Below, one piece after another: positions 13,812-64,000 of a DNA stretch of 64,000 nucleotides. This stretch comes from Candidatus Marinacidobacterales bacterium (GTDB lineage Bacteria > Acidobacteriota > Vicinamibacteria > Marinacidobacterales > DATDRI01): NCBI GenBank assembly GCA_965226495.1, contig OZ245365.1, forward strand, positions 288,001 through 352,000, written 5' to 3'. The notes below the pieces were generated by a model. It did no database searches. It had not been told where the DNA came from and saw only the letters and a program-made list of their open reading frames with translations. The translations under genes and the position numbers were made by a program. Numbering within the stretch: position 1 is the first letter of the stretch; the number at the start of each line of letters is the position of its first letter.

Positions 13812-13827
13812 AGCAATTCTGATGCCA
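13812..13827 (-). promoter_or_regulatory. Sigma54 -24/-12 promoter
   Basis: TGGCATCAGAATTGCT, upstream of the degenerate activator gene. Confidence 0.7.
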
Positions 13828-23654: not shown

Positions 23655-25037
23655 TTAGCTTGCGTGCTGCTGTTTGCGGAAGGCTTCTGGCTGGATGCCG
23701 TATTTCTTCATGACATCGTAGAAGTCTTTCCGATCCTTCTTGGCCAGCCGGGCAGCCTGGCTGATGTTGCCCTGGCAGATACGGAGAACTTGAGAAATAT
23801 ACTCTTTCTCGAACTCCCGCTTGGCTTCCTTGAAGGATTGGAACTTGTTTGAGGAAACCGGAACGTGGAAGAAAAGATCCTCGGCGGTGATGACGTTGTT
23901 GCGCGTCAGAACCATGGCTTGCTTGATCTTGTTCTTGAGCTCGCGCACGTTTCCCGGCCACTGATATGTCATCATCTTCTGGATGGCGGCGGGCGAGAAT
24001 CCCTCCACCACTTTTCCCAACTCCTTGTTGAAGTCGCTGAGGAAGTGATTGATGAGGAGCGGTATGTCCTCTTTACGCTCCCGGAGTGGTGGAATGTTTA
24101 CGGGGATGACGTTCAAGCGGTAGAAGAGGTCCTCGCGGAACGACTTCTCGGCTATGGCTTGGATCAGATCTTTGTTGGTGGCGGCGATCACCCGGACATC
24201 CACCCGGATGGGGCGTGTCGATCCGATTCGCTTGAATTCGCCATCCTGCAAGACGCGCAGGAACTTGACCTGAAGGGTTACCGGCAGCTCCCCGATTTCG
24301 TCCAAGAACAGCGTGCCCCCATGCGCCTCTTCGAATAAGCCCTTCTGATCGGTTCGGGCGTCGGTGTAGGCGCCTTTCACGTGGCCGAAGAGCTCGTTCT
24401 CGATCAGGTTTTCGGGGATCGCTCCGCAGTTTTCAACGACAAAGGGTCGATCGGCGCGCTTGCCGGTATAGTGGATGGCTCGCGCCACGAGCTCCTTACC
24501 GGTGCCGGACTCACCGTAAATGATAACCGGGACGTCGTTTTGCGCCACGATGGAGGTTTGAGTGAGCAGCTCCTCGATCTTCGCACAAGCACCCACAATG
24601 TAGTCGGACTTCCGCCGGCTCATGATCTTGGTGCGGACCTGCCGGGCCTCGGAACTCGTGATTTGATGGTCTAGCGCCTTTTTAACCTTGGTGACTAGAT
24701 CTTCCACGTCGAATGGCTTGGTGACGTAATGGTAAATACCGTCCCGCATGAGCTGCACGGCTTCGTCCACCTCGGCGTAGGCCGTCATGACGATGATGGG
24801 GATATTCGGATTGAACTGCGCTACCGCCCTCACCAACTCGTCCCCTCGGAGCTTGGGCATCCTCAGGTCCGTAATTATCAAATTGAAGACTTCCTTACGG
24901 ATGAGGTCGAGCCCCTCTTCGCCGTTGGGAGCCGTATGCACGGCGTAGCCCTCGCGCTCCAGACGCTGCCGGAGCATGCGTTGCATACTGGCATCGTCAT
25001 CGACAACAAGGACCTGCGACCCAGTGGGTTCGTTCAT
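23655..25037 (-). CDS. Sigma54-dependent response regulator (GlrR-like)
   Basis: REC (VVDDD, DLRMP), GESGTGKE, ELFGHVKGAYTDA, LFLDEIGE, FREDLFYRL, WPGNVREL and GNISQAARLA. Confidence 0.93.
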   Translation of the reverse strand: MNEPTGSQVLVVDDDASMQRMLRQRLEREGYAVHTAPNGEEGLDLIRKEVFNLIITDLRMPKLRGDELVRAVAQFNPNIPIIVMTAYAEVDEAVQLMRDGIYHYVTKPFDVEDLVTKVKKALDHQITSSEARQVRTKIMSRRKSDYIVGACAKIEELLTQTSIVAQNDVPVIIYGESGTGKELVARAIHYTGKRADRPFVVENCGAIPENLIENELFGHVKGAYTDARTDQKGLFEEAHGGTLFLDEIGELPVTLQVKFLRVLQDGEFKRIGSTRPIRVDVRVIAATNKDLIQAIAEKSFREDLFYRLNVIPVNIPPLRERKEDIPLLINHFLSDFNKELGKVVEGFSPAAIQKMMTYQWPGNVRELKNKIKQAMVLTRNNVITAEDLFFHVPVSSNKFQSFKEAKREFEKEYISQVLRICQGNISQAARLAKKDRKDFYDVMKKYGIQPEAFRKQQHAS

Positions 25038-25080
25038 TGTTACGGCTCCGTTTGTCGTACTGTTGGGGGTGTGGGGAAAA

Positions 25081-26277
25081 TTATACATTACTTGTCTCTC
25101 CAATGGAAACGCGTGTTAGGTCTAGGGGGCGAGGCTTCGCTGGAGCGTTCGTCCTCGCGAGAACCCGCCTAACACGTTCGGTCGGGCCATGTCTCCAAAG
25201 CAGAGTCAGACCTCGCCGAACCGACGGCCACTGGTTGGGGGGGTGTCCTGCCGTGCGGGTGCAAAGGGTCTCCCAAGCCAGCGCCAGTCCGTCCCGAGGT
25301 CCCGGGGTCCAGCGGATACGCACCCAGGGTGAGCCAAAGACAGATTCAAGAGCCGGATTCAGAAGGGATTCGGTCCTTAGCTTCGTGGCACGCCTCTGCT
25401 GCCAGCGGCCCACGAAAGGCTTTAAGGATTCAAGGGCTTTCCCGATTTCCTCCGTCGGGAAAAGATGGTGGCAAAGTGAGAGTCCCCCGTAAACGAGAGG
25501 AGCCAATCTAGGGGCGGAGGCTTGGTCGATGAAACGATCCCAGCGGAGCTCTGTCTGCTGGGAGAGAAGGTATGCGTCGCAGGCGTTGACGGCCGGCTGT
25601 CGGAGTCCGTGCTGGAAACTCCCGTGCAGGCATAGGTGGAGCAGGTGGTCTTCGAGCGCTAACGTGCGCGCCGCCAGGTGCACCGTGGGGATCGAACGGT
25701 CGAAAAGGGAGCCGGCTTCGACTCCCACATAGTCTGGGCAGCTTGTGAGGCTCGTGTGCAGCTCTAAATAGGTGCGTGTTTTTCGGTGTTGTAACGAGAG
25801 CGCATGATCGGTTGTTTGATGGTGCTGGTAGCCGAGCTCCTTCGCCAAGTGTGCGACGTAAGCCAAGTCCTCGCTCCGCACCAGAATGTCTAGGTCACCC
25901 ATCGGCCGGAGTGCCGGACTCGGGTAGAGCCATCCCGCGAAAGAGGCACCCTTTAGCAACACCAGAGGAACTCCACCCTTTCGGGCCAGCTTGATGAGCG
26001 ACTGCGCATGCTCGAACAAGTGGAAATTGTGGACCAAATTCGTGTAATACGCGCTCTCGAGCGATCGCCAAACGGGCTGGGGTACGGACTTCTGGAACGC
26101 GAGCCGACGAATACCCTCGAACAGAAGGCTCGCCAAACGGTGCCGTCGCGCCGACGCCGCGATCCAGGGCCAGTCGGCGTTGGCCAGGTCGCTGCTTTTC
26201 TCGAGCTCTGGTTCGTAAGGCTCGCCCAGTCCCGCCCGAACCAGTCCCAGATAGAGCCCGAAATCGTCTCGACTCAT
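25081..26277 (-). CDS. Uncharacterised nucleotidyltransferase family protein (NTP_transf_5-like)
   Basis: LLKG...LYP.PALRPMGDLDILV, LELH and HLCLH. Confidence 0.85.
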   Translation of the reverse strand: MSRDDFGLYLGLVRAGLGEPYEPELEKSSDLANADWPWIAASARRHRLASLLFEGIRRLAFQKSVPQPVWRSLESAYYTNLVHNFHLFEHAQSLIKLARKGGVPLVLLKGASFAGWLYPSPALRPMGDLDILVRSEDLAYVAHLAKELGYQHHQTTDHALSLQHRKTRTYLELHTSLTSCPDYVGVEAGSLFDRSIPTVHLAARTLALEDHLLHLCLHGSFQHGLRQPAVNACDAYLLSQQTELRWDRFIDQASAPRLAPLVYGGLSLCHHLFPTEEIGKALESLKPFVGRWQQRRATKLRTESLLNPALESVFGSPWVRIRWTPGPRDGLALAWETLCTRTAGHPPNQWPSVRRGLTLLWRHGPTERVRRVLARTNAPAKPRPLDLTRVSIGETSNV

Positions 26278-26741
26278 TGATCCCCTCTTTCAAGCTGCGG
26301 TGCCCGAGGGAGGAAACGGCGCACGTTTTTTTTCCATTGGACAAGCTTTGGATAATAGCGGTTCAAGACGAGACCAATGTGGCGGGCCAGGCCGCCCGTC
26401 AACGGTATGAAAAAGGGTTCCTCGATCCCGAGGACCCGCCCGAGCACTTCAGAGACTTCGACCGGGCCGTCCGCTTGGCCAGACGAGTCGCCCTTGGTCC
26501 ATACGCGGCTCTCGTCGCACGCCAAGACGCGATGCGCCACGAGACGGCCCCCGGCGGTGCGGAAAAACGCGATGTCGCCGACCATGGGACGTTCATTGGA
26601 CGGGGCGATTCTAAGGACCGTACCGCTTCTCAGAAGCGGTTTCATGCTCGACCCGGAGACCCTAAGGCTAAGAGTCCATCCGGAACGGAGCAGTGATTCG
26701 GCCAGAGTCCGGCTGGTTTCAGTCTGTTTCATCAGTGCCAT
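26274..26741 (-). CDS. S24/S26 family peptidase
   Basis: VSGSSMKP, VGDI, VAHRV, TKGD and DGP..VLGRV; no clear TM anchor. Confidence 0.85.
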   Translation of the reverse strand: MALMKQTETSRTLAESLLRSGWTLSLRVSGSSMKPLLRSGTVLRIAPSNERPMVGDIAFFRTAGGRLVAHRVLACDESRVWTKGDSSGQADGPVEVSEVLGRVLGIEEPFFIPLTGGLARHIGLVLNRYYPKLVQWKKNVRRFLPRAPQLERGDQ

Positions 26742-26777: not shown

Positions 26778-26793
26778 TGCAAGTGGCGTGCCA
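26778..26793 (-). promoter_or_regulatory. Sigma54 promoter
   Basis: TGGCACGCCACTTGCA, a consensus match 37 bp before the peptidase start. Confidence 0.8.
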
Positions 26794-38911: not shown

Positions 38912-39032
38912 CTTCCTTGAACGAAGCAACCCCCATGCCATAAGGGCCTCCCTCTCCCCTTGCGAGACTGGGGGCGTCAAGAAATGCCGTGCCGCTATCA
39001 ATGACGTCAGACGCCGGGAGAGGGGGTGGTGA

Positions 39033-39164
39033 CCACTAAGGCCCCCTCTCTCCCCTTTGGGGGAGAGCGCTGGGGCCACTAAGGTCTCCCTCTCCCCTTT
39101 GGGGAGAGGGTTGGGGCCGCTAAAGTCTCCCTCTCCCCTTTGGGGAGAGGGTTGGGGTGAGGGG
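39033..39164. repeat. Tandem REP-like palindromes (three units of ~41-43 bp)
   Basis: CCCTCTCCCC-TTT-GGGGAGAGGG core repeated; degenerate copy near 38940. Confidence 0.85.
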
Positions 39165-39190
39165 ATGGTAGTTCGTCAAGAGAACGAAAC

Positions 39191-39769
39191 CTAAATCCAC
39201 CCACGTCCCAAGTAGTAGGCTAGCTTCGCGTACTCGGAAAAAACGATCCTCGCGCTGAACGAGTTCCGCCACCAACCCTCGGGCTTCCAGAAACTCGGCT
39301 CGGCGGGGCTGTTGAACACCGTCACCTGGTTACCGAAAGACTTCCGCGCCGCCAAAAAGGCTCTTCTCTGGTGGTAGGGATGGGTCACCAATGTTAGTGA
39401 ACGGATCTGGTGACTCTTGAGGATGGGAAGAACAAACACAACCGATTCGTGAGTGCTCCTCGAACGATCCTCAAGCACTAGCTTGTCGGCTGGGACCCCT
39501 CTCGCGATGGCATGTTGCGCCAAACTGCTAGCGTGGTCGCCGCCGCCTGGTTCGCCACCGCAGAGAACCAGTCGGGCAACGAGCCCATTTTTGTACAAGC
39601 GCACGGCGTGCTCGGTTCGCTCGTAACCGGGGTCCCCCCCGAAAACCATAGCGGCGTCGGCGCGAGTAGGTGGGTCTCGAAGCACAAGTGCGTGTGAAGT
39701 GAGATCGCTCATGGCGAGAACCCCAATACATCCTATCGACGCGCATGCGACCAAAAGCCATATACGCAT
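39191..39769 (-). CDS. YdcF/DUF218 (ElyC-like) protein
   Basis: ADAA.VFGG, LVLCGG, EDRSRSTHE, LVT.PYHQRRA and EYAKL. Confidence 0.88.
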   Translation of the reverse strand: MRIWLLVACASIGCIGVLAMSDLTSHALVLRDPPTRADAAMVFGGDPGYERTEHAVRLYKNGLVARLVLCGGEPGGGDHASSLAQHAIARGVPADKLVLEDRSRSTHESVVFVLPILKSHQIRSLTLVTHPYHQRRAFLAARKSFGNQVTVFNSPAEPSFWKPEGWWRNSFSARIVFSEYAKLAYYLGRGWI

Positions 39770-53873: not shown

Positions 53874-55369
53874 TTCGTAGGACACTCGCTTACGTTCTCC
53901 TCGCGTCCTTCGCAGTACTGTCTGTAGGGTTGGCGATTCCACGAATACTTTTAAAGTTAGACTCGGATCCTTCCCCAAGGCGGTTTCAAGAGGGCGGCGG
54001 GTCAATTACCCACTCGGCGAACATGGATAATATATTGCTCATTACGATTGATACGCTCCGAGCCGATCACCTTGGAATTTATGGATACGCAAGGCCAACC
54101 AGTACTCGAATAGACTCCTGGTTTGGGAATTCTCAGATCTACGAGCGAGCGTACTCGACCGAGGCTAACACTACTCCCAGCGTCGTGAGTATGCTGACGG
54201 GCCTCATACCCCAGCGGCACGGAGTCCGGTTACTTTTTCAGAAGATTTCAGGGCGCATTCTTACTGTGCCTGACTACTTGGCCCATGCCGGCTATCAGAC
54301 GTCCGCAGTAGTATCGAACTTTGTCCTAACCGCCGAAGCCAGCGGGCTCGACACACGATTCGGTCACTACAATGACTTGGTGGACGAACAGGAGTCCTAT
54401 CGATTGGCTTTTGAACGCCGCGCCTCGCGAACGACCGACGCAGCGGTTGAATGGCTGGTTAAAGGGAGGGATCCAGGTCAGCCGCACTTCCTCTGGGTGC
54501 ATTACATCGACCCACACGGTCCTTACCAGCCTTCAGTAGACGGTTTGACAAACTTCACACACTCCGAGATTCGCCTTATCGACAAGGACAAAATTCCTGA
54601 TTACCAGCAGGAGCCTGGCTTGTTGGATGGGAACGAGTACGTGGATCGATATGACGAAGAGATTGCCTACGTCGATCGCGAAGTGGGGCGTTTGCTAGAC
54701 GTCTATGAGCGGCTCGGGCTCGCCAAGGACGCTACGGTTGTCCTTACGGCAGACCATGGTGAAAGCATGATGGAGCACGAGCAGTGGTTCTCCCACGGTT
54801 ACCAAGTCTACGAGTATATCGTTCGAGTTCCTCTTATGATACGCTCGCCGCGATTTCCTGCTAGACGAATAGTCACGCCGGTTTCCCTTGTCGACCTTGC
54901 ACCGACGCTGCTCAAAGTAGCAGGAGCTTCGATTCCTCAGGGACTTGACGGACGGGCGCTGCCTCCGTCGTCGCTGCCGCGGGACGTGTTTGTCGAGGCA
55001 ACGATGGGCGAGAACCAATGGCGTGCGCTTATTCGAGGAAAAGAGAAGTGGTTGATCGGCGTGAAGCGGAACTCCAATTTCGTTGATCGTGCTCTCCACA
55101 GGCTTTTCTTGGTTCAGCCGTTCGTCGAGGTCGTCGAGTTCGAGCAGCGTTACTATCACCTGGACGAAGATCCAGGAGAGTTACGACCTTTGCACTGGCC
55201 ACGGGAGGAGGACGCCTTAAGCTTGATTAGGATGGCGGCAGAGGACCCGGATCCTGCGGGCCTTCCTACTCGTTTAACCCCGGGGATCTGGGTGAAGGCT
55301 CCGAAGGTTGCCCCAGGCGTTGACGCTCGATCGCTAGAAAAACTCAAGGCTCTGGGTTATGTGCAATGA
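53870..55369 (+). CDS. Sulfatase/alkaline-phosphatase-superfamily protein with Thr at the nucleophile position
   Basis: NILLITIDTLRADH, TTPSVVSMLTG, HYIDPHGPY, TADHGE and LKALGYV; N-terminal TM. Confidence 0.88.
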   Translation: MIRRTLAYVLLASFAVLSVGLAIPRILLKLDSDPSPRRFQEGGGSITHSANMDNILLITIDTLRADHLGIYGYARPTSTRIDSWFGNSQIYERAYSTEANTTPSVVSMLTGLIPQRHGVRLLFQKISGRILTVPDYLAHAGYQTSAVVSNFVLTAEASGLDTRFGHYNDLVDEQESYRLAFERRASRTTDAAVEWLVKGRDPGQPHFLWVHYIDPHGPYQPSVDGLTNFTHSEIRLIDKDKIPDYQQEPGLLDGNEYVDRYDEEIAYVDREVGRLLDVYERLGLAKDATVVLTADHGESMMEHEQWFSHGYQVYEYIVRVPLMIRSPRFPARRIVTPVSLVDLAPTLLKVAGASIPQGLDGRALPPSSLPRDVFVEATMGENQWRALIRGKEKWLIGVKRNSNFVDRALHRLFLVQPFVEVVEFEQRYYHLDEDPGELRPLHWPREEDALSLIRMAAEDPDPAGLPTRLTPGIWVKAPKVAPGVDARSLEKLKALGYVQ

Positions 55370-55479
55370 ACACCTCCCAGCAGCAGTCGTGTGATTCGGT
55401 GTCGACGTGTCAGTCATTTGGGATGGACGCGTGAGAAGAATCGTGCGCCTCTTGCTCCAAATAAGGGTTGGGCTTGCCC

Positions 55480-57090
55480 TCACTCGGGGTTGGGCCTGGT
55501 AGCAACGCCGCGCACTACGCCGAGGACAATCGACAGGAGCGCGAAGTTAGCGGGAAGGTGAAGGCTGAAATCCGTTAGACTGTGAAGGCCAATGCCGATC
55601 GCGGCAGCGCAGTACCCGGCGTGCAGATTGAACAGGGCAGGGTGGTAATGGAGTGCCTCGCGATCTCGGTGCGCGCTTCGCCATACGACCAATAGGATCC
55701 ACGCGAGTAACAGTGAGCCCGGGAGCCCAAGCTCAATCAATAGCTGCAGATAATCGTTGTGAGCCCACGAGTAGAAGACGCGTCCCGAGAACGTGCGGTA
55801 GTTGCTCGTTAGATACCGGTATGAGCTCAGGCCGGAACCAGTAAGCCAGAAATCCTGCGCTGCGCCGAGGCTGTCTTTCCAGACTTGCGGGCGAGCTTTC
55901 TCGGCTTCCAGCTGTCGCGGAAGCTCTCCGAATCGGCTAAGAACTGGCTCGATTCCGATCCAGACCGCAAAGCCCGCGACGGCGAGTGCCAGGATCCAGT
56001 ACCCTCGAGTGAAGCGGTGGTGCGTTCGCTTTCGACGATGGCCGTGGTGGAGGTCGATCGCGTCCGTCTCGTCTCCACGGAGGCCCGGTTCCCGTTTGGT
56101 CAGAAGCGCGAACGCTACACAACCGGCTAGGGCGAACGTGAGCCCGGAGCGTGAGAGTGAAAAAACAATGCCGAGACCGATGGCAATGATTCCCAGACCG
56201 CCCAGAATAAGTCTGGCTCGCGCGTCCCCGGCATCGGTTTGCCTGACCCGACGTCCTTCGGTTCGAGACAATTGAACATTTCGTGATGCAAGCCATCCGA
56301 GACTGCACAGCAGGATCATTCCCAAGAAAGCAGCGTAATGGTTCGGGTTGCCGAAGGTCCCTCTCGCTCGAATTGTGGTAATGGACGCGGCTTCACCCAT
56401 CTGAGACTGCAAGCCTAGAAGCCACTGTCCCGTACCATAGACGCCGAAGGCGATACCGCATAGAAACAGCGCGAGGGTTAACTTTTCTACCTTTTTCGCG
56501 TTCTCGGCAAGTCTAAATGCGGAATAGAAGAGGACGAGGTACGCGATCCACTGCCACAGGTCGCGCAAGGTGAGGAATGGCGCCAAGCTCAAAGGAGAGG
56601 AACTTACCTCGCCACCGACTAAGGCTTCTACTTCTGAGCGGAGGGAGTGCGCCTCGGGCGAGATCGCCTCGAGCCAAGTTGGATCGAGAGGCACGAGTGA
56701 GACCCCAATCCAGAGGGACAACAGGAAGACTGGCACACCAAGCCCCGTTCGTTTGAAAGGGAAGCCTAGTACCACGACGTGATTCTGGGCATCGAAGCTG
56801 AAGGATTCCTCGTCGTCGACGGAGCCGGGTGGCAGGATGGTGACTTCTGTCCGACGACGGCCTCTTAAGCGTAGCCATGGGTGTCGTTCTAGAAAGGGGA
56901 GCCGCTTCAACGCCCTTCGTTGTTCGAGAATCCTCCTTCTTTCTGCAGGCCCGGTGTGTCTGAGGACGTCGAAGACCAACCAGAGCGCCAAACCGACCGC
57001 GCCGAGCTCGAGAACAAGACTCGCCCATGGATCGTAGCCTCCTCTCCCGAGGGCGACGATCATGATGAGCAGAACAAGTAACAGGTGCAT
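55480..57090 (-). CDS. O-antigen ligase family protein
   Basis: GTFGNPNHYA, SLSRSG, R..W, G.GL and AHNDYLQLLIELG. Confidence 0.88.
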   Translation of the reverse strand: MHLLLVLLIMIVALGRGGYDPWASLVLELGAVGLALWLVFDVLRHTGPAERRRILEQRRALKRLPFLERHPWLRLRGRRRTEVTILPPGSVDDEESFSFDAQNHVVVLGFPFKRTGLGVPVFLLSLWIGVSLVPLDPTWLEAISPEAHSLRSEVEALVGGEVSSSPLSLAPFLTLRDLWQWIAYLVLFYSAFRLAENAKKVEKLTLALFLCGIAFGVYGTGQWLLGLQSQMGEAASITTIRARGTFGNPNHYAAFLGMILLCSLGWLASRNVQLSRTEGRRVRQTDAGDARARLILGGLGIIAIGLGIVFSLSRSGLTFALAGCVAFALLTKREPGLRGDETDAIDLHHGHRRKRTHHRFTRGYWILALAVAGFAVWIGIEPVLSRFGELPRQLEAEKARPQVWKDSLGAAQDFWLTGSGLSSYRYLTSNYRTFSGRVFYSWAHNDYLQLLIELGLPGSLLLAWILLVVWRSAHRDREALHYHPALFNLHAGYCAAAIGIGLHSLTDFSLHLPANFALLSIVLGVVRGVATRPNPE

Positions 57091-57095
57091 CAGGC

Positions 57096-58280
57096 TCAGG
57101 GGTTCCAGAGATTCGTCGTCGTGACCAGGCGCGCGATCTCCCGCTCGGCCTCGGCATTGTTGGGATCCAATCTCAACACCTTTTGATACTGCGCCATAGC
57201 CTGTTCGTTGTTGCCCGAACGGTGTGAGATCCGAGCCAGTCCGAGTGTTGCCGGTGTGTAAGAAGGAGACAAGGTGGATGCTTCGGCAAAGAGACTTTCT
57301 GCCAAGACGACATCACCGCGATTCAAGTACTCATTTCCCATAGAGCACAAGAGCTCCAAACTTGCACGGCTGGAGACCCCGGACGTCTTCTCGATTTGCT
57401 GCAGTGCGCTACGAAAGACTTGATAAGCCGCGGCGGCGTCACCAAGTAGAAGGTGTGCCCTTGATACGAAAATGGCCCACTGAAACGAGTTCGAGGCGGT
57501 ACTCTTTGCTTCCGCGTCCTGCCACTTGAGGGCGGCTTCTAACCCCAACCGCGCATCACCTTTCTGGAGCGCCCAATGGGTTGCCTGGCGGAAGAAACTT
57601 GGGTCGTCCGATGTGACCAACATTTCTCGTAGCAACACGAACGCCTCCGTGTCGTGCTCAGACCTGAAGAGGACGGCGAGCAGGGTGTTCTGCCCGCGAA
57701 CGTCGTGAGGGACGAGCTGGGCCCAACGGTTCGGTGGCACGTGGTAGCGTTGGGCGGCCGTCAGGACTCGATCCGTCAGCTCAGGCTCCCGTTGAGCGGC
57801 TGTTCGTAGGTGATTTTCGGCGAGGTCCAGTGGATCGATCGGGTCAGACTGACTGCTGTTGATGGCGGTCCATGCTGCCAAGTCGGAGCGCGCAGTGAGT
57901 AGCCACTCTCCATAAGCTAGGTGGAGCCGTCCATTGGCGGGAAAGCGATTCAGAGCGAGTGCGAACGATTGATTCACGACGGCTGGATTCTCGGCGCGGT
58001 TCGCATAGTAATCGGCAAGGAGTAACGGGGGCTGGTAAAAGGACGGGGCCTGCCTCAGGAGACGATGGAGGCGGGCGAGTTGGTCATCGGACGGTGTAGG
58101 ACTGCTGAGCGCCTGGCGGACAACCAGAAGTGTGGCCTCGGGGTGGTGCAGATCGGAAATCGTTTGCGCACTCGCCTCCGCCGGAGACCGTGCCCACCGT
58201 TCTTGAAAGTAGAAATTGATCGCGCCCGCGGCGTACAGAGCCGCCAATATTATCGAGAGACCAGCAATGAGTGCGCGCAT
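57096..58280 (-). CDS. Membrane-anchored tetratricopeptide repeat protein
   Basis: N-terminal TM; TPR pattern A...Y..VL.LDP.N.EA. Confidence 0.8.
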   Translation of the reverse strand: MRALIAGLSIILAALYAAGAINFYFQERWARSPAEASAQTISDLHHPEATLLVVRQALSSPTPSDDQLARLHRLLRQAPSFYQPPLLLADYYANRAENPAVVNQSFALALNRFPANGRLHLAYGEWLLTARSDLAAWTAINSSQSDPIDPLDLAENHLRTAAQREPELTDRVLTAAQRYHVPPNRWAQLVPHDVRGQNTLLAVLFRSEHDTEAFVLLREMLVTSDDPSFFRQATHWALQKGDARLGLEAALKWQDAEAKSTASNSFQWAIFVSRAHLLLGDAAAAYQVFRSALQQIEKTSGVSSRASLELLCSMGNEYLNRGDVVLAESLFAEASTLSPSYTPATLGLARISHRSGNNEQAMAQYQKVLRLDPNNAEAEREIARLVTTTNLWNP

Positions 58281-58347
58281 GGATAGATCGAAGGATTCGA
58301 GCTGTTCTGGCTTCGTCGGATACTCTGTTTTGAGGCCCTTAGGGCGT

Positions 58348-59259
58348 TCAAGGTTTGACGGCGACGCTCGTCAATCCGTCCCCGAGCCTCAGTACGTCTG
58401 CAGCCCACATGACCGCGCTCGTACCAAACCGTTCTAGCGACTCCGTTGCATTCCGCGGTTTTGGCAGGCAGTTCCTGCCCTGGAAGACGTTGATGGTGAC
58501 GTCGGTGAAGCCGCAACGACTCAACATAGTTTCGAGGCTCTTTGGGGAAAAACCAAACACATGGCCCGGCGAGAATGTTGGCGACAGATTGACTACCCAG
58601 TCACGACCGCGGATCCTTTGCCAAAAATTGCCGACGCGGTAGTAGAGTCCTCTCTCATTCGGCACTTCCAGCAACAGCAAGCCACGTGGCCGGAGCGCCC
58701 TAAAGATCTTCGAAAGCACTTGGCAAGGGTCGAGTAGATGTTCGAGAATGGCGTTCAAAAAGACAATGTCAAACGAGTTTGCCTCCAAGTCGACCGTGGC
58801 AATGTCGCCAACGTCGACGCGCACCCCCAAGTTCTCTAGGGCGTATTTTGCAAACTGTTCGGAGATGTCGAGGCCGACGGCCTCCCAACCGCGGTGACGG
58901 GCCACCTCTAAGAGAACACCCTGTCCGCAACCGACGTCGAGGAGGCTGCGGCCTTCGGTTCGGTGCTCTAGGTCGGCCAAGCTAGTCGCGGCGGCTCTGC
59001 GCTTTACCTCGATGTCGTGATGCCTGAAGTATTCCTCCGCAGCCGTGTTGTACAGCAGGGAAGGGTCCTTGGGAATGGGCATGGGATTTGCGAAGATCAG
59101 ACTGCATTCCTCACAGGTAACCACGCGTGTTAAGATCCCTTCGCCGGAACGGTGGGCCTTGCCACCGCGGAAACTGATCTGACGCTGCCTAGCGCTCTCG
59201 CAGGCATTACAGCGCGGCATGTTACGGAACTGGAATTGTTCGTAGGCGACCTGCGTCAT
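58348..59259 (-). CDS. Class I SAM-dependent methyltransferase
   Basis: CxxC pairs, LLDVGCGQG, ILEHL.DP and EVPN. Confidence 0.9.
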   Translation of the reverse strand: MTQVAYEQFQFRNMPRCNACESARQRQISFRGGKAHRSGEGILTRVVTCEECSLIFANPMPIPKDPSLLYNTAAEEYFRHHDIEVKRRAAATSLADLEHRTEGRSLLDVGCGQGVLLEVARHRGWEAVGLDISEQFAKYALENLGVRVDVGDIATVDLEANSFDIVFLNAILEHLLDPCQVLSKIFRALRPRGLLLLEVPNERGLYYRVGNFWQRIRGRDWVVNLSPTFSPGHVFGFSPKSLETMLSRCGFTDVTINVFQGRNCLPKPRNATESLERFGTSAVMWAADVLRLGDGLTSVAVKP

Positions 59260-59432
59260 CGTGTTCCTCGGCTGACGGCGAGACGAGCGAGTGCATCCAA
59301 TCTCGCTGCGAACATGCGCATTGATGAGCCGAAGGGGGTCTCGATAATTACCTCCGGTTGGACCTTTTTGTTTGACTTTAGAGGCATTGTAACACACGGA
59401 GTGAGGCTAACAAAACGTTCCGTCACTGATGG

Positions 59433-61526
59433 TTACGGCGGGGTTGTCTCGGTTAGATAGCGTTCGAGCGCTGTTTCGGCGTCCGACCCATCACCCGCCG
59501 CCCCGCGGAGAATCGCAGGGTCGTCGTCGACATAAGGTCCAATCGTTGACACCGCTTCATAGGGAGATATGCCAGGAACCATGTTCCTCCCTTTCTCCAG
59601 TTGCTCTAGAGCGTCCTCTACCCGACCCCGGGAGGCGAGATAGAGCGCGTAGTTGACTCTCAGCTGGCTCCACGTTGGCTCCAAGTGAAGCGCGTGCTCG
59701 AAAAGCGGGCTCGCGACATCGTCGTTGAGAAGATTGGCCTGGGTCCATGCCAGCTCGAACCAGTAGCGACCTCGGGCCGGTGCACGACGCACAGCCTCAT
59801 CGAATGAATCTCGTGCCTGGGTAAATCGGATCTCTCGGTACCGATCCGAGTTCGGCGAGCGATAGGCTTCCTCGTTGTAGAGCGATCCTCGTTTGAAGGC
59901 CGTTTCGGGATTACCTTTCGCAAAATCCCGCGAAGCATTCAACTGGCCCGCGAGATCGGCGAAGGCCTTCGGTTCAGCACGCGATGGATTTACTGTGAGG
60001 ATGGCGTTGCGGGAGAAACCGATTGCTAGCGTCGCGGTCGCCGCGGCAACCGAGCACAGCACGACCAGGACGGCAGCTCCCCAGCGGAGCGATGAACCAG
60101 CTGGTTGCGAGGCATCGCGAGGATGAGAGCCCGCGATCATCCCCAGAACCGCGGCGAAGAGGAAGCCATTCGAAGGAATATGGGAATTGAAATCGAAGAT
60201 CCCGTGGACAAGTAGAGCCACAGCGGCCGCCATCGCGCCGAAGAGAATCCCCTGGCTCCCGCTCGATGGTTCCTCGTCTTCCAATCTTTCTCGAGCCCGC
60301 CGGATCGCCACCCAGAGGAAGCCGAGCACGATGGCGAGCCCGGCGACGCCGGTTTCGCAAGCGAGCTGCACCAGGTCGCTCTCCGCGAACTCCGCGCGAG
60401 TTTCATTCATTCCCGTGCGATAAGGCGGGATCGCAGCCGCATAGGTTCCGAGTCCGGTTCCAAAGAGGGGCGAGCGTAGAGCGAGGTGTATTGAATCGGA
60501 CCACAGCTGCAATCGAAATTGCATTGAAACGTCTTGCGAGCCCCGACCTATGGATCCGATTCGCTCGAAAACGCTGGTCGGCGCCGCAAAGAGCAACAAG
60601 AGTGTAATGGCTCCCGCCCAAATGGCCAGTACCGAAACTCGGGTCCGTGCCTTCCCTCGTAATGCCAGAATGCCTAAAACAACCGCGCCGGCTCCTGCTG
60701 CCAAGAAGCCGCCTCGCGAGTGGGAGAGGACTATCGCCACTCCCATAAAGAGTGCCGATCCGCCAAGCAGTATCGAAACCGTCTGGCTGCGACGCCCCAG
60801 GTGTCCGATCGCACCGCCAAGAGCAACTAAAGCGCACATTTCTACGAAACCGGCGAAGTGGTTGTGATTCACGAACGGGCCGAACGGGTTGGCGGAAGGT
60901 ACGGGGTAGCGACCGTAAAGCACGGTCCCCCAACGTGCGTGCTGGTAGACGGCGAATAGGCTAAGCGCAACGCCCAAGGCAGCCACGGTGTATCCGAACA
61001 GCCGGATGTCGCGACGGTGAACGAAGAGATGGCTGAATAGAAAGAAAGCGGTGACCAGCGCACCGAGTCGCAGTAGCTCGCCCTGGGTGGCGAACGTCTC
61101 GATGGAAACGGCGCGCCAGCCAGTGCCGACAATTTGCTCAGCATGGGCAATGCCCGGGAAGTGAATCGCCGCGGAGGCCGGTGCGAGAATCTTGAGAAGG
61201 CCGGGCGCCAATGGAAGCAGCTGGAACAGACCAAGCAATACCGCGAGACCGAGCCAGCGATGAGCGGGCCAACGGAAGTACACTCCGCGCTCTCTTATTA
61301 AGAGGTTGCAGACCCAAACCCCAAAGAGCAGGTAGAGCGCCGCGCTCAGGAACGCCGAGGGCAATGGTGTCGCCGAGCCGAATGGCCAAGGGGCAGCAAC
61401 CAGCAGGAGTAGAAGTGAGAGACGAATCACCCAGCCGAGCTTCCCCTCGTCGAGCGCGGCAGCCGCCGATTCGTTCTCGTTCCGTGTCTTGGCGGGGGGC
61501 GGGAAGTCGGAGACGTTCATAACCAT
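59433..61526 (-). CDS. O-antigen ligase family protein with C-terminal TPR
   Basis: GPFVNHNHFAG, SHSRGG, R..LW, GTGLG and AESD..Q..CETG (E in place of the usual H). Confidence 0.85.
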   Translation of the reverse strand: MVMNVSDFPPPAKTRNENESAAAALDEGKLGWVIRLSLLLLLVAAPWPFGSATPLPSAFLSAALYLLFGVWVCNLLIRERGVYFRWPAHRWLGLAVLLGLFQLLPLAPGLLKILAPASAAIHFPGIAHAEQIVGTGWRAVSIETFATQGELLRLGALVTAFFLFSHLFVHRRDIRLFGYTVAALGVALSLFAVYQHARWGTVLYGRYPVPSANPFGPFVNHNHFAGFVEMCALVALGGAIGHLGRRSQTVSILLGGSALFMGVAIVLSHSRGGFLAAGAGAVVLGILALRGKARTRVSVLAIWAGAITLLLLFAAPTSVFERIGSIGRGSQDVSMQFRLQLWSDSIHLALRSPLFGTGLGTYAAAIPPYRTGMNETRAEFAESDLVQLACETGVAGLAIVLGFLWVAIRRARERLEDEEPSSGSQGILFGAMAAAVALLVHGIFDFNSHIPSNGFLFAAVLGMIAGSHPRDASQPAGSSLRWGAAVLVVLCSVAAATATLAIGFSRNAILTVNPSRAEPKAFADLAGQLNASRDFAKGNPETAFKRGSLYNEEAYRSPNSDRYREIRFTQARDSFDEAVRRAPARGRYWFELAWTQANLLNDDVASPLFEHALHLEPTWSQLRVNYALYLASRGRVEDALEQLEKGRNMVPGISPYEAVSTIGPYVDDDPAILRGAAGDGSDAETALERYLTETTPP

Positions 61527-62354
61527 TCAGGCCTTAAACCCGACCGCGCACCAATAGGGTTCCGTATCGGCCAAGCGAACTTCGGTGAGCCCCGCGGCTT
61601 CCATCATTTCTCGGATCTGAGACGCGCTAAACCTCTGTTCGAGCGGTGTGCCAAAGCGGTCTCGGGAGTCCGTTCGCATGGTGTAAAGGCTGCGATTCCG
61701 ATAACTAGCTAGGGGGAAGTTCGAAACCCGCCCCCCAAAGAATTCCGCGGCTTTGGCGAAACGGGCCAAGGGCCAATAAACCGTGAGGGCTATGGTGTCG
61801 CAAACTATGTTTTTGGGCTTCTCGGGTAGAGCAGCTACCAGGTGTCTTATGCCGTTGGATGCTCGCCAGAGTGATCGAAACCACCAGGGCCGGTTGTCCA
61901 TCGCGTAGTACAAGTAGACGAGGAAAGGGGCTCCTTTCTTAAGCACCCTTGCGCACGCTGCGAGCGAAGCTTCGGTGTCGGGGACATGATGAAGAACTCC
62001 AAGGGAATAGCCAAAATCCATTGAATTCTCTGCGAACGGAAGGTTCATCACCGAGCATTGGTGGAAAACAGAATTCTTGAACGGCTGGAGATTGCGTTTG
62101 GCTACCTCGAGCGCCTCTGGGCTCGCGTCCACGCAATTCAGCACACCCACTCGGGGGGCGACGAAGCGGGCCCAACGGCCGGAACCACAACCCGCATCGA
62201 AACCCTTCGCTTCGGGGGGGATGCGTTGCCAAGGAAACAGTCGGAAATACTGCTCGAAAATGGAGCTCAGTTCGGCTTCCTGCACCTCGGACTGATCAAA
62301 GCGAGACCATTCCCTTCCAAACGATTGAACGGTCCGTTCGTCTAGATTGCTCAT
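61527..62354 (-). CDS. Class I SAM-dependent methyltransferase
   Basis: FG.EW..F, DAGCGSGRW, SLGVLHH and DRFGTPLE; start 62354 or 62384. Confidence 0.9.
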   Translation of the reverse strand: MSNLDERTVQSFGREWSRFDQSEVQEAELSSIFEQYFRLFPWQRIPPEAKGFDAGCGSGRWARFVAPRVGVLNCVDASPEALEVAKRNLQPFKNSVFHQCSVMNLPFAENSMDFGYSLGVLHHVPDTEASLAACARVLKKGAPFLVYLYYAMDNRPWWFRSLWRASNGIRHLVAALPEKPKNIVCDTIALTVYWPLARFAKAAEFFGGRVSNFPLASYRNRSLYTMRTDSRDRFGTPLEQRFSASQIREMMEAAGLTEVRLADTEPYWCAVGFKA

Positions 62355-62691
62355 GTAGATCGCTGACGATGGAGCAACGCGCATCCTGGCCTCACATCAG
62401 TGGGCCATTCTCACGCTTCTATTTAGTTGGCTGCGGGAGGATCAGTATCTCATTCAGATCATACCATAAATCCCTTAACTACACGCCTTTGGCGCACTCC
62501 TCCACTGTGGGGAAAGAATAGCCGTTGGTAGGGGAACCCCCTCAAAAAAAGGGGGTTAGAGGTGGTCAAAACGTCGACTTTTGCGGTTAGGGGTGGGTAA
62601 CTCCCCCCGAACAAAATCGTTCGCCGACGCTCGTACCCCGATCTAACTGCGCCGCCGACACTTAGCGCTGCTGCCCACGGCCTAACGAGCC

Positions 62692-62707
62692 TGGCAGGCC
62701 TTTTGCT
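62692..62707 (+). promoter_or_regulatory. Sigma54 promoter with no downstream protein gene
   Basis: TGGCAGGCCTTTTGCT, preceded by palindromic sites at 62528 and 62593. Confidence 0.6.
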
Positions 62708-62717
62708 ATTAGAGAGA

Positions 62718-62975
62718 ATTGAAACACGGCTTTCGGCTCGAACGAAAGAAAGAAAACCGAGCCACTTGAGCCACTTGAGTTTGATTAGCCGCCGTGCTGA
62801 TGGTGGTTTCCGAAGCAGCAAGGCACTGCAACGGAATTTAAATCACCTGAGGCGGCACCCCCGCGTGGCGGGGTCGGAGTGGATGTGAGGTCGATTCCGG
62901 TAACGGTTCCGGGCTTCGGTAATTCGCGTCCAGGTTGGGGCTTCGACCCTGCCCGCACCCTTTGTTTCTGTTTCC
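62718..62975 (+). ncRNA. Candidate structured sRNA (~255 nt)
   Basis: Three nested stem domains with G-U pairs on the plus strand, A-rich loop and U-rich tail. Confidence 0.55.
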
Positions 62976-63002
62976 TCTACCTTGTGACCACTGCCCCGGT
63001 GG

Positions 63003-63400
63003 TCAACGAGCAGCCTGCCAAGTGTCCACGCACCCCTTGTAATTTTCCGCGATGGCTTCGATCGCCGCGGACTCTTGCTTGGGATCTTCGAGAAAACGCT
63101 TGAGGGGAGCGCTGAAGTTGGTGCGGCCGACGGCGAACCCGATGAAGCCGGGAACCGGTGAAGCGACCTGTAGCCACTTGTGGACTTGCTCTTGTCGGAG
63201 CCGCGCCCCAGGATGATGCAACCGACTCTCTTGCGCGCCTCACCGACGCGCGCTTGTTCCGAGACCGCCTCCGCCTGCTCGCGCCGGTCCAGACCTTCCA
63301 CCTTCCAGATGTCCGGCTCGACGCCGTAGTCTTGCAACACCTTCACCGCTTCGACCATGTGGTCGGGGCGGAGCTCGGAATCGTAACGGTCCCCTGCGTT
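63003..63400 (-). pseudogene. 5'-truncated, frameshifted DUF2090 (IolC-associated aldolase-like) fragment
   Basis: YD.ELRP, GVEPDIWKVEG and IILGRG, then GFIGFAVGRT in another frame. Confidence 0.8.
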
Positions 63401-63438
63401 CTTGAACGGTTCTTGGGGGAACGAAAAAAGGCGGAGGA

Positions 63439-63740
63439 TTAATGCAAGTCCGACTCTGGTTTCAAGTAAACGATAGCGTAAGCAAAGGGGTTTTCTCTCT
63501 CGGCCAGCGCTTCGATAGCTCGTATTATGTCCCCGTCGGTCATACGAGGGAGTCTCTCATCAATCGTGACGAAGACTCAATTTGCTTTCGCGGCGTGCTC
63601 GAATAGCACCTCGTCTTGCGTTCTCTCGGGGAAAGCATCGATAGCCCGCTCGACATCCCAAATCCTCGGCAGATCAAACCATCGACTATTTGCTGACGGA
63701 GACAGGCGTCGCTGAACAGCGGAAACCAGTTGGGCACTAG
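63439..63740 (-). pseudogene. DUF5615 PIN-like toxin pseudogene
   Basis: GL..RG/WDVERA...DEVLFEHA, then an in-frame TGA before VFVTID; frameshift. Confidence 0.65.
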
Positions 63741-64000
63741 CGGGCAGCTCGGCGCTTCAAGTATTCGGCCCGCTTCCGTTCGTGCTCTTCTTCCGCTTTG
63801 TCTTCTTCGGCAAAGGAGGCTTCAATTTCCTCCGTATGGTCGTAGTAGTAGGCCAGAGCCGCGTAGACTTGGGCCAGGCTCAATGGGGCTGCGAACACAT
63901 TGAGCATTTTCTCAGGACTATGCCTTCCTCGTGCAGACAGACGCGATGTCCTTGACGCTGATGCGAGTTCCGTCAATACAAGCCTTGCCGCCGCAGACGC
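63737..64000 (-). pseudogene. DUF433 antitoxin-like gene, frameshifted, partial at window edge
   Basis: VCGGKACIDGTRI.V and LSLAQVYAALAYYYDH..EI lie in different frames. Confidence 0.75.

Follow-up and report, generated by a model that had tools for sequence, protein, structure and literature searches.

The 64,000-nt window that we analysed (G000:C1:288001-352000, from the 6.34-Mb, single-contig genome G000 with 59% G+C) very probably contains a real sigma-54-transcribed gene for a structured RNA. It lies in the intergenic stretch 62385-63002, between the start of a minus-strand methyltransferase gene and the end of a truncated minus-strand DUF2090 copy, and the predicted non-coding RNA occupies 62718-62975 on the plus strand. 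Taking function into account, we lean towards a non-coding RNA gene of ~250 nt which is co-regulated with the adjoining glycan cluster and acts in trans. Sequence comparison makes this RNA the founder, and the best-conserved member, of an RNA family that has not been described before and is present in two families of one Vicinamibacteria order (Acidobacteriota). Direct support comes from the promoter motif and its conservation, a fold with covariation, the strand, the lack of a coding frame, synteny and co-distribution with an activator gene. An earlier note on this DNA had proposed a sigma-54 promoter driving a structured, apparently novel RNA of ~255 nt. Its observations are confirmed, with every sequence feature that it listed present in its place, the promoter conserved and Rfam without a match, and its interpretation is partly supported.

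The sigma-54 (-24/-12) promoter is TGGCAGGCCTTTTGCT (TGGCAGG-N4-TTGCT) at 62692-62707 on the plus strand, with the GG at 62693-94 and the GC at 62705-06. The predicted +1 lies 12 nt past the -12 GC, and the predicted 3′ end lies past a long stem (P1, described below) and its T-rich tail. A lone match to this pattern is unremarkable, given that the genome contains 42 TGGCA-N6-TTGC[AT] sites against ~20 expected. Conservation, however, puts the promoter beyond chance, because TGGCA-N7-TTGCT is conserved across orthologous loci: it stands 139-198 nt 5′ of an invariant core in 20 of 20 distinct full-length loci. The promoter is also found in 18 of 24 metagenome matches, and the six matches without it comprise three second modules of tandem pairs, two that have no upstream sequence and one doubtful member. 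Genome G000 has one rpoN gene (one Sigma54_DBD match) and 20 strong Sigma54_activat matches. A simple promoter/terminator scan of 62300-63100 found no sigma-70-like site, and its one terminator-like hairpin, at 62400, is unrelated.

An exact-pattern scan with the invariant core over 185,579 species genomes returned 20 stretches, all of them from Acidobacteriota / Vicinamibacteria / ‘Candidatus Marinacidobacterales’. BLAST of 62400-62990 against 41 related genomes gave matches in 22. The whole region matches G002 (same genus) at 86% identity and G007 (sister genus) at 69%, and the last 105-115 nt, here called domain 3, are 83-91% identical across two families (6/7 genomes of f1 and 15/17 of f2). 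In a third family, f3, none of the 16 genomes had a BLAST match to domain 3. The covariance model R1, which represents domain 3, matched 20 of 151 genomes in a sample of the class (f1 3/5, f2 16/18) and none of the 127 genomes from 17 other families; R2, a model of a shorter form discussed below, had no match in a sample of 150 other genomes drawn from the whole phylum. Scanning metagenomes yielded 24 further matches on 21 contigs. The 20 distinct full-length loci share one layout: a sigma-54 promoter, a variable 5′ hairpin, a GCCGCC/GGCGGC domain and a nearly invariant 3′ domain of ~105 nt. The RNA is single-copy in most genomes and keeps one syntenic place across the two families. There are four promoter-less copies (copy 2 of G000, those of G003 and G014, and the second module of the G020 tandem pair), and a fifth copy, in G001, is a 70-nt remnant only. 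G007 is flagged as unpublished, and the three-way alignment, one of the 20 members and two weak paralogue matches depend on it; the main conclusions hold without it.

For 62715-62975, the plus strand gives a three-domain fold of -105.6 kcal/mol (z = -2.9, 0/200 shuffles as good), while the fold of the minus strand is unremarkable (z = -1.6, 11/200 shuffles as good). Domain 1 (62728-62772, plus strand) is a 5′ hairpin, present in the minimum free energy folds of all 20 members, whose sequence varies among families. In G000 it pairs GGCTCG with CGAGCC (62735-40 and 62758-63), and a GAGCCACTT tandem occupies 62759-76. Domain 2 (62788-62856, plus strand) has a nearly invariant closing stem of GCCGCC (62788-93) with GGCGGC (62851-56) around a variable inner hairpin, which is swapped in other members for sequences that still pair. 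All 20 members fold into this same three-domain layout although their 5′ sequences differ.

Domain 3 (62863-62956, plus strand) is the conserved module. It consists of P1, a 17-bp G+C-rich stem that pairs 62863-81 with 62938-56; P2, formed by UGGAUGUG and CGCGUCCA; a 9-nt bulge, AGGUUGGGG, at 62932-40; and a 32-nt apical element at 62889-62920. The tail after P1 is U-rich in G000 and many others. The simple scan missed P1 as a terminator because the stem-loop is ~95 nt. The earlier note had seen domain 3 and overlooked that it is a separately conserved module, duplicated in the genome and common to paralogues.

Pairing in domain 3 is supported by covariation. In an alignment of 33 matches fitted to R1, which favours R1's own pairing, 98.1% of the cells are standard pairs and 18 of 33 pairs are changed on both sides (P1 10/17, P2 6/7, apical 2/9). 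None of 500 shuffles reached as high a value, slid controls gave 2-6 such pairs, and an independent MAFFT/RNAalifold run recovered the same helices. The apical 32 nt and the AGGUUGGGG bulge are almost invariant, and therefore covariation cannot test their pairing. Rare variants in these parts (GUAA to GUGA; C, U or G at one position) fit the RNAalifold model, and they argue against a C(UUCG)G tetraloop.

Several domain 3 pairs are mostly G-U (e.g., 17/20 or 20/20 members), which would be A-C on the opposite strand, and R1 gave no reverse-strand match at E<=0.01. Because the G-U pairs and the R1 matches fit the plus strand only, we place the RNA on that strand, which is also the promoter's, as had been proposed before.

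Known RNAs do not account for the locus. With cmscan, no Rfam 15 family reached E<=1 over 58000-64000 or E<=10 over 62700-63000; ARAGORN found no tRNA or tmRNA in 55000-64000; and the SRP and 6S RNAs, considered as candidates, are both located elsewhere in the genome. No description of the RNA was found in Rfam 15 or in the literature, as far as listings and the opening lines of abstracts go. We rate it as a newly found RNA family that belongs to a type of system already known.

Nor does the region appear to encode a protein. A 61-aa open reading frame (ORF) lies on the plus strand at 62703-62888, and its frame is broken in the same-genus G002 by indels which are not multiples of three. A 120-aa frame on the minus strand has no Pfam match, and no conserved reading frame exists over the ~250 nt past the promoter. 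In G010 and G028, the RNA's promoter is the sole sigma-54 site of the cluster without an ORF of at least 60 aa within 350 nt.

R1 and R2 also match shorter RNAs in which P1, the AGGUUGGGG bulge and P2 are retained and compensatory changes are clear. A small hairpin stands in place of the apical element in these short forms, whose 5′ parts are unrelated. A sigma-54 promoter lies 71-111 nt upstream in 7/7 first short forms and also in two of G034. None of these paralogues is adjacent to DUF2090, and Rfam gave no match to them bar a chance miRNA at E=0.19. Two domain 3 copies stand in tandem behind a single sigma-54 promoter in G020 (L013:931-1304), L126 and L139, the first copy having no U-run. 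Genome G000 has one short form at C1:2773483-2773588 (52 bits; within L099:1420-1606 = G000:C1:2773400-2773588), with a conserved 5′ part, orthologues in G003, G006 and G007, and no Rfam match. A regex search of G000 for extra paralogues had found none before R2 matched this one. One G005 member, L087:1405-1600 (G005:C3), is a short form with a sigma-54 promoter and no U-tail that lies directly upstream of a same-strand GAF-GGDEF gene, and it could be a 5′ leader instead of a free RNA. Another G005 member, L086, adjoins a PilZ gene.

The RNA gene stands at the edge of a Wzy/methyltransferase glycan cluster and diverges from it. By domain search, the first gene of the divergent operon encodes the methyltransferase (61527-62384, minus strand) and the next a Wzy_C/TPR O-antigen-ligase-like protein (59433-61526, minus strand); among 14 other genomes examined, 8 have a Wzy_C gene immediately upstream. 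The cluster also encodes an asparagine-synthase-like amidotransferase, GT4 and GT2 glycosyltransferases, methyltransferases, two Wzy_C proteins in all, Wzz and a polysaccharide export protein. At its far end, a minus-strand operon (23655-26741) encodes an S24-like peptidase, NTP_transf_5 and an NtrC-type sigma-54 activator (23655-25103), and has its own sigma-54 promoter-like site at 26778-26793 (minus strand). Five more such sites lie within the cluster, each upstream of an ORF, at 28362-77 (-), 28691-706 (+), 38925-40 (-), 44904-19 (-) and 46639-54 (+), and a further one, also upstream of an ORF, lies at 13812-13827 (-). The window thus holds 8 of the genome's 42 TGGCA-N6-TTGC[AT] sites in 1% of its length; seven are just upstream of ORFs and the eighth is the RNA's. 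Family f2 is similar: where ~0.1 sites are expected, G010 has 5 within 38 kb and G028 has 6 within 40 kb. The RNA gene probably belongs to the regulatory circuit of this cluster, and the envelope-glycan link suggested earlier gains support from the conserved synteny with the Wzy/glycosyltransferase cluster and from the NtrC-type activator.

The activator itself is 97% identical to its counterpart in G002 and 87% to that in G030, from the other family. Orthologues are 85-97% identical vs <=47% for paralogues, a clean separation. An orthologue is present in 16 of the 19 genomes with a promoter-bearing RNA. The two share a contig in 13 cases, and in 11 of these the activator gene is upstream of the RNA at a distance of 3-38 kb. 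No activator is found in G003 or G014, where the sole RNA copy is promoter-less. In G001, of the same genus (L024, C8:76566-77323), what is left of the RNA, 70 nt of its 3′ part, directly adjoins a truncated activator gene (residues ~246-481, 95% identical), a junction as expected from one deletion over the 5′ part of the RNA, its promoter, Wzy_C, NTP_transf_5 and the N-terminus of the activator. On this evidence, we put the chance that the cluster's own activator switches on the RNA at about even.

Candidate binding sites lie upstream of the promoter. The block GTTGGTAGGGGAACCCCCTCAAAAAAAGGGGGTTAGAGGT (62524-62563, plus strand), an 8-bp palindrome plus A-tract, is a candidate enhancer or bending site; a hairpin of AACCCCCT and AGGGGGTT is found at 62535-62557. 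This block is almost invariant among G000, G002 and G007, yet the region as a whole is merely 69% identical to G007. The boxes ACGTCGACTTTT (62571-82) and GGGGTGGGTAACTCCCCCC (62590-608, a G/C-rich dyad) span 62571-62608 on the plus strand, ~100-120 nt upstream of the -24 element; they are conserved in G002 and G007 and are candidate activator-binding sites. Inspection by eye shows a related G-rich box or dyads with an A-tract at a similar distance in family f2, likewise TTTGACGGGAATCTCCCACG-like boxes there, and GGGGA..TCCCC-like dyads upstream of other sigma-54 sites of the cluster. On the minus strand at ~38950-39200, three tandem CCCTCTCCCCAAAGGGGAGAGGGAG-like palindromic units closely precede the sigma-54-like site at 38940 and may be activator sites or a repeat element.

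Several observations weigh against reading the locus as a trans-acting RNA under the cluster's control. Domains 1 and 2 show little formal covariation, and a MAFFT/RNAalifold consensus of 16 family-f2 sequences consists mostly of invariant pairs. Several members, e.g., G004, G005 and G020 (G020a), have a poor U-tract behind P1. One f1 paralogue group, which includes the G000 short form, has a sigma-70-like promoter of the TTGACG-N17-CATAC type. G005, G012 and G022 have a promoter-bearing RNA without an activator orthologue, and in G006 and G026 the main RNA is missing although the activator is there (the G026 locus is cut just upstream of the expected place of the RNA's boxes and promoter), so the RNA-activator pairing is not obligate. 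The co-occurrence is also partly phylogenetic, since family f3 lacks both. A shared enhancer motif has no statistical support from a strict pattern: the palindrome GGG[GA]A-N1-5-T[CT]CCC is found upstream of 1/8 in-window sites vs 1/34 other sigma-54-like sites and is not enriched. The palindromes that had been called enhancer-like are conserved in G002 and G007, and ‘enhancer’ is a reading of them only. The promoter-less domain 3 copies in G003, G014 and G000 stay beside DUF2090 and could have a role independent of the sigma-54 promoter. Finally, whole-length duplex energies, a crude method, identified no target: values for the 5′ regions of glmS, Wzy, the methyltransferase, NTP_transf_5 and the activator were no better than those of random windows, although the method is too crude to exclude targets. 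For glmS, which the earlier note had named for target prediction, the duplex energy of -115.1 kcal/mol was equalled by 62% of 120 random windows, in a comparison that ignores intramolecular structure, and that link found no support.

From the evidence as a whole we infer the ends of the transcript, its dependence on this activator, its action in trans and any partner or target. Transcription would start near 62718 and end past the long G+C-rich stem near 62956-62975. The glycan cluster would itself be a sigma-54 regulon, with the activator gene at the opposite edge from the RNA, and the cluster's activator, or another, would turn on the RNA together with the glycan genes. The RNA would then regulate the glycan programme post-transcriptionally, in trans. 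Its nearly invariant 3′ domain (P1, the AGGUUGGGG bulge, P2 and the apical element) would be the functional core, perhaps best imagined as a scaffold or as a protein docking or titration site that doubles as terminator, and the variable 5′ domains may supply target specificity. We favour a bound partner over a classical seed because conservation concentrates in a folded 3′ module which is shared by paralogues and sometimes doubled. This suggestion is tentative, and we regard it as somewhat doubtful that the 3′ domain works via protein binding rather than base pairing. Hfq is present in the genome; CsrA and ProQ were not found there.

The 3′ module could instead be a lineage-specific strong terminator hairpin and nothing else, with any function residing in the 5′ parts of what would be Hfq-type base-pairing small RNAs. 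This is unlikely in our estimate, but it has its attractions: the module sits at the RNA's end, with U-runs after it in most short forms, Hfq was found where CsrA and ProQ were not, and the module occurs behind sigma-54 and sigma-70-like promoters alike. Terminator stems normally drift, however, and here a 9-nt bulge and a 32-nt apical element have hardly changed between two families. Moreover, the first module of tandem transcripts has no U-run, and the 5′ parts that would bear the seed are the least conserved. A more elaborate form of the protein-binding idea is that these are modular riboregulators, in which the long form, the short paralogues and the tandem forms compete for one protein that would bind the 3′ domain with high affinity, making up an independent GlmY/GlmZ-like decoy hierarchy that sets exopolysaccharide (EPS) output; we consider this rather improbable.

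Some known systems resemble this one in part. GlmY of Enterobacteria is a small RNA dependent on sigma-54 and GlrR, and GlmY and GlmZ are sister RNAs. The likeness lies in a sigma-54 promoter with upstream dyads driving a structured small RNA, probably through an NtrC-family activator; in sister RNAs that share a structural module, at least one having a sigma-70-type promoter; in the link to envelope sugars; and in a RapZ homologue near rpoN in G000. This RapZ-like gene is ~1.7 kb downstream of rpoN on the same strand (G000:C1:2404276-2406921), and a RapZ-like gene downstream of rpoN is the arrangement of the enterobacterial rpoN operon. The differences are that our RNA has no sequence or structure match to GlmY/GlmZ, is longer, neighbours an EPS cluster rather than glmS, belongs to another phylum and has a decoy action which is putative. 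The GlmY analogy drawn by the earlier note therefore stands for the logic of the circuit and fails for membership in the GlmY family. The Qrr1-5/LuxO system of Vibrio is alike in having several paralogous sigma-54-dependent RNAs per genome, an NtrC-type activator, and a shared segment with differing remainders. What is conserved in the Qrr RNAs, which are ~100 nt, is a single-stranded seed, whereas here it is a folded 3′ domain without an Rfam match.

CrcZ/CrcY (CbrB, sigma-54) and CsrB/RsmZ offer a precedent for possible protein titration by repeated modules, which the tandem domain 3 of some members recalls; unlike them, our RNAs have no repeated A-rich or GGA motifs and mostly a single module, in a genome where CsrA was not found. 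EPS loci of the PEP-CTERM/exosortase type (PrsR, TIGR02915) likewise combine an EPS locus with an NtrC/AtoC-like sigma-54 activator, and several proteins of our cluster are XrtA-like. All of these matches, however, score under the curated NCBIfam cut-offs: PEP_resp_reg (the activator) 398.2 vs 502.6, eps_aminotran_1 (the amidotransferase) 568.8 vs 816.9, stp2 198.4 vs 409 and PEP_O_lig_1 57.6 vs 188. To our knowledge, no RNA gene has been described for such systems.

RNA-based regulation in Acidobacteria is almost unexplored, and these Vicinamibacteria are known from metagenome-assembled genomes only. The locus offers a well-delimited RNA family whose promoter names the sigma factor, together with a candidate activator and a candidate regulon, the EPS cluster with its 5-8 sigma-54 promoters. 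The conserved module has enough covariation to be modelled and is a candidate family for Rfam, and control of surface glycans and biofilm in this group becomes directly testable. If the 3′ module does bind a protein, it would represent an independent invention of GlmY/Qrr-type circuit logic outside Proteobacteria.

The neighbouring DUF2090 gene suggests another explanation, namely that domain 3 is a 3′-end element of that convergent gene (a structure of its 3′ untranslated region or a bidirectional terminator) and that the sigma-54 transcript is incidental or antisense. DUF2090 is the next gene after the main form in 14/14 contexts, always convergent and in 13 directly adjacent, and promoter-less copies of domain 3 remain attached to it. 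Contigs from RNA libraries also bridge the two. Four sequencing runs, filed as metatranscriptomes (one, X18, being RNA by guess only), have contigs from relatives that cover parts of the RNA; contigs X17, X18 and X19 join domain 3 to the 3′ end of DUF2090. X18 (62689-63097) begins 3 nt before the promoter motif and, because it includes the promoter, may be DNA or read-through. More generally, neither the strand nor the ends of a transcript can be read from such contigs, and the libraries may contain DNA, which also counts against using them in favour of our own reading. One of them, the 184-nt X20, covers 62721-62900 from its fourth letter; since that letter aligns at 62721, X20 starts at ~62718, which is the predicted +1 and the 5′ end named in the earlier note, although this is a weak hint. 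No contig from the four runs covers 62300-62673, which is uninformative either way. What makes the DUF2090 explanation quite improbable is that the G-U pairs and model scores suit the plus strand only, no U-run follows the stem on the minus strand, the promoter and 5′ domains are kept with domain 3 in 20/20 full-length loci, and paralogues with the same module lie elsewhere than beside DUF2090.

It is very improbable that the element is a cis-acting leader or a small-protein gene. The 61-aa ORF and the placement of paralogue L087 before a GGDEF gene, without a U-tail, would fit such a role, but no same-strand gene follows the main form in any of the 14 contexts, the ORF is broken in G002, and the invariant domain has no codon-like pattern of change.

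An origin as a mobile-element remnant or attachment site has equally little to recommend it: a duplication brackets a toxin-antitoxin/AbiEii insert in G000 and transposases adjoin the locus in G003, G022, G016 and G034, but the RNA is mostly single-copy, at one syntenic place in two families, with a conserved promoter and fold. The duplication is a direct repeat of 541 columns, copy 1 of which (62865-63404) is 97.8% identical, with one gap, to G000:C1:354372-354912 (L002:1501-2041), and most of domain 3 falls within it, as does the 3′ part of DUF2090. Small toxin-antitoxin-like ORFs and a disrupted AbiEii gene occupy the ~3.4 kb that separates the copies, and no integrase was seen there. The DUF2090 copy at 63003-63404 (minus strand) is a truncated, frameshifted 3′ part of the convergent gene, and the intact gene follows the second repeat copy 3.9 kb further on, outside the window.

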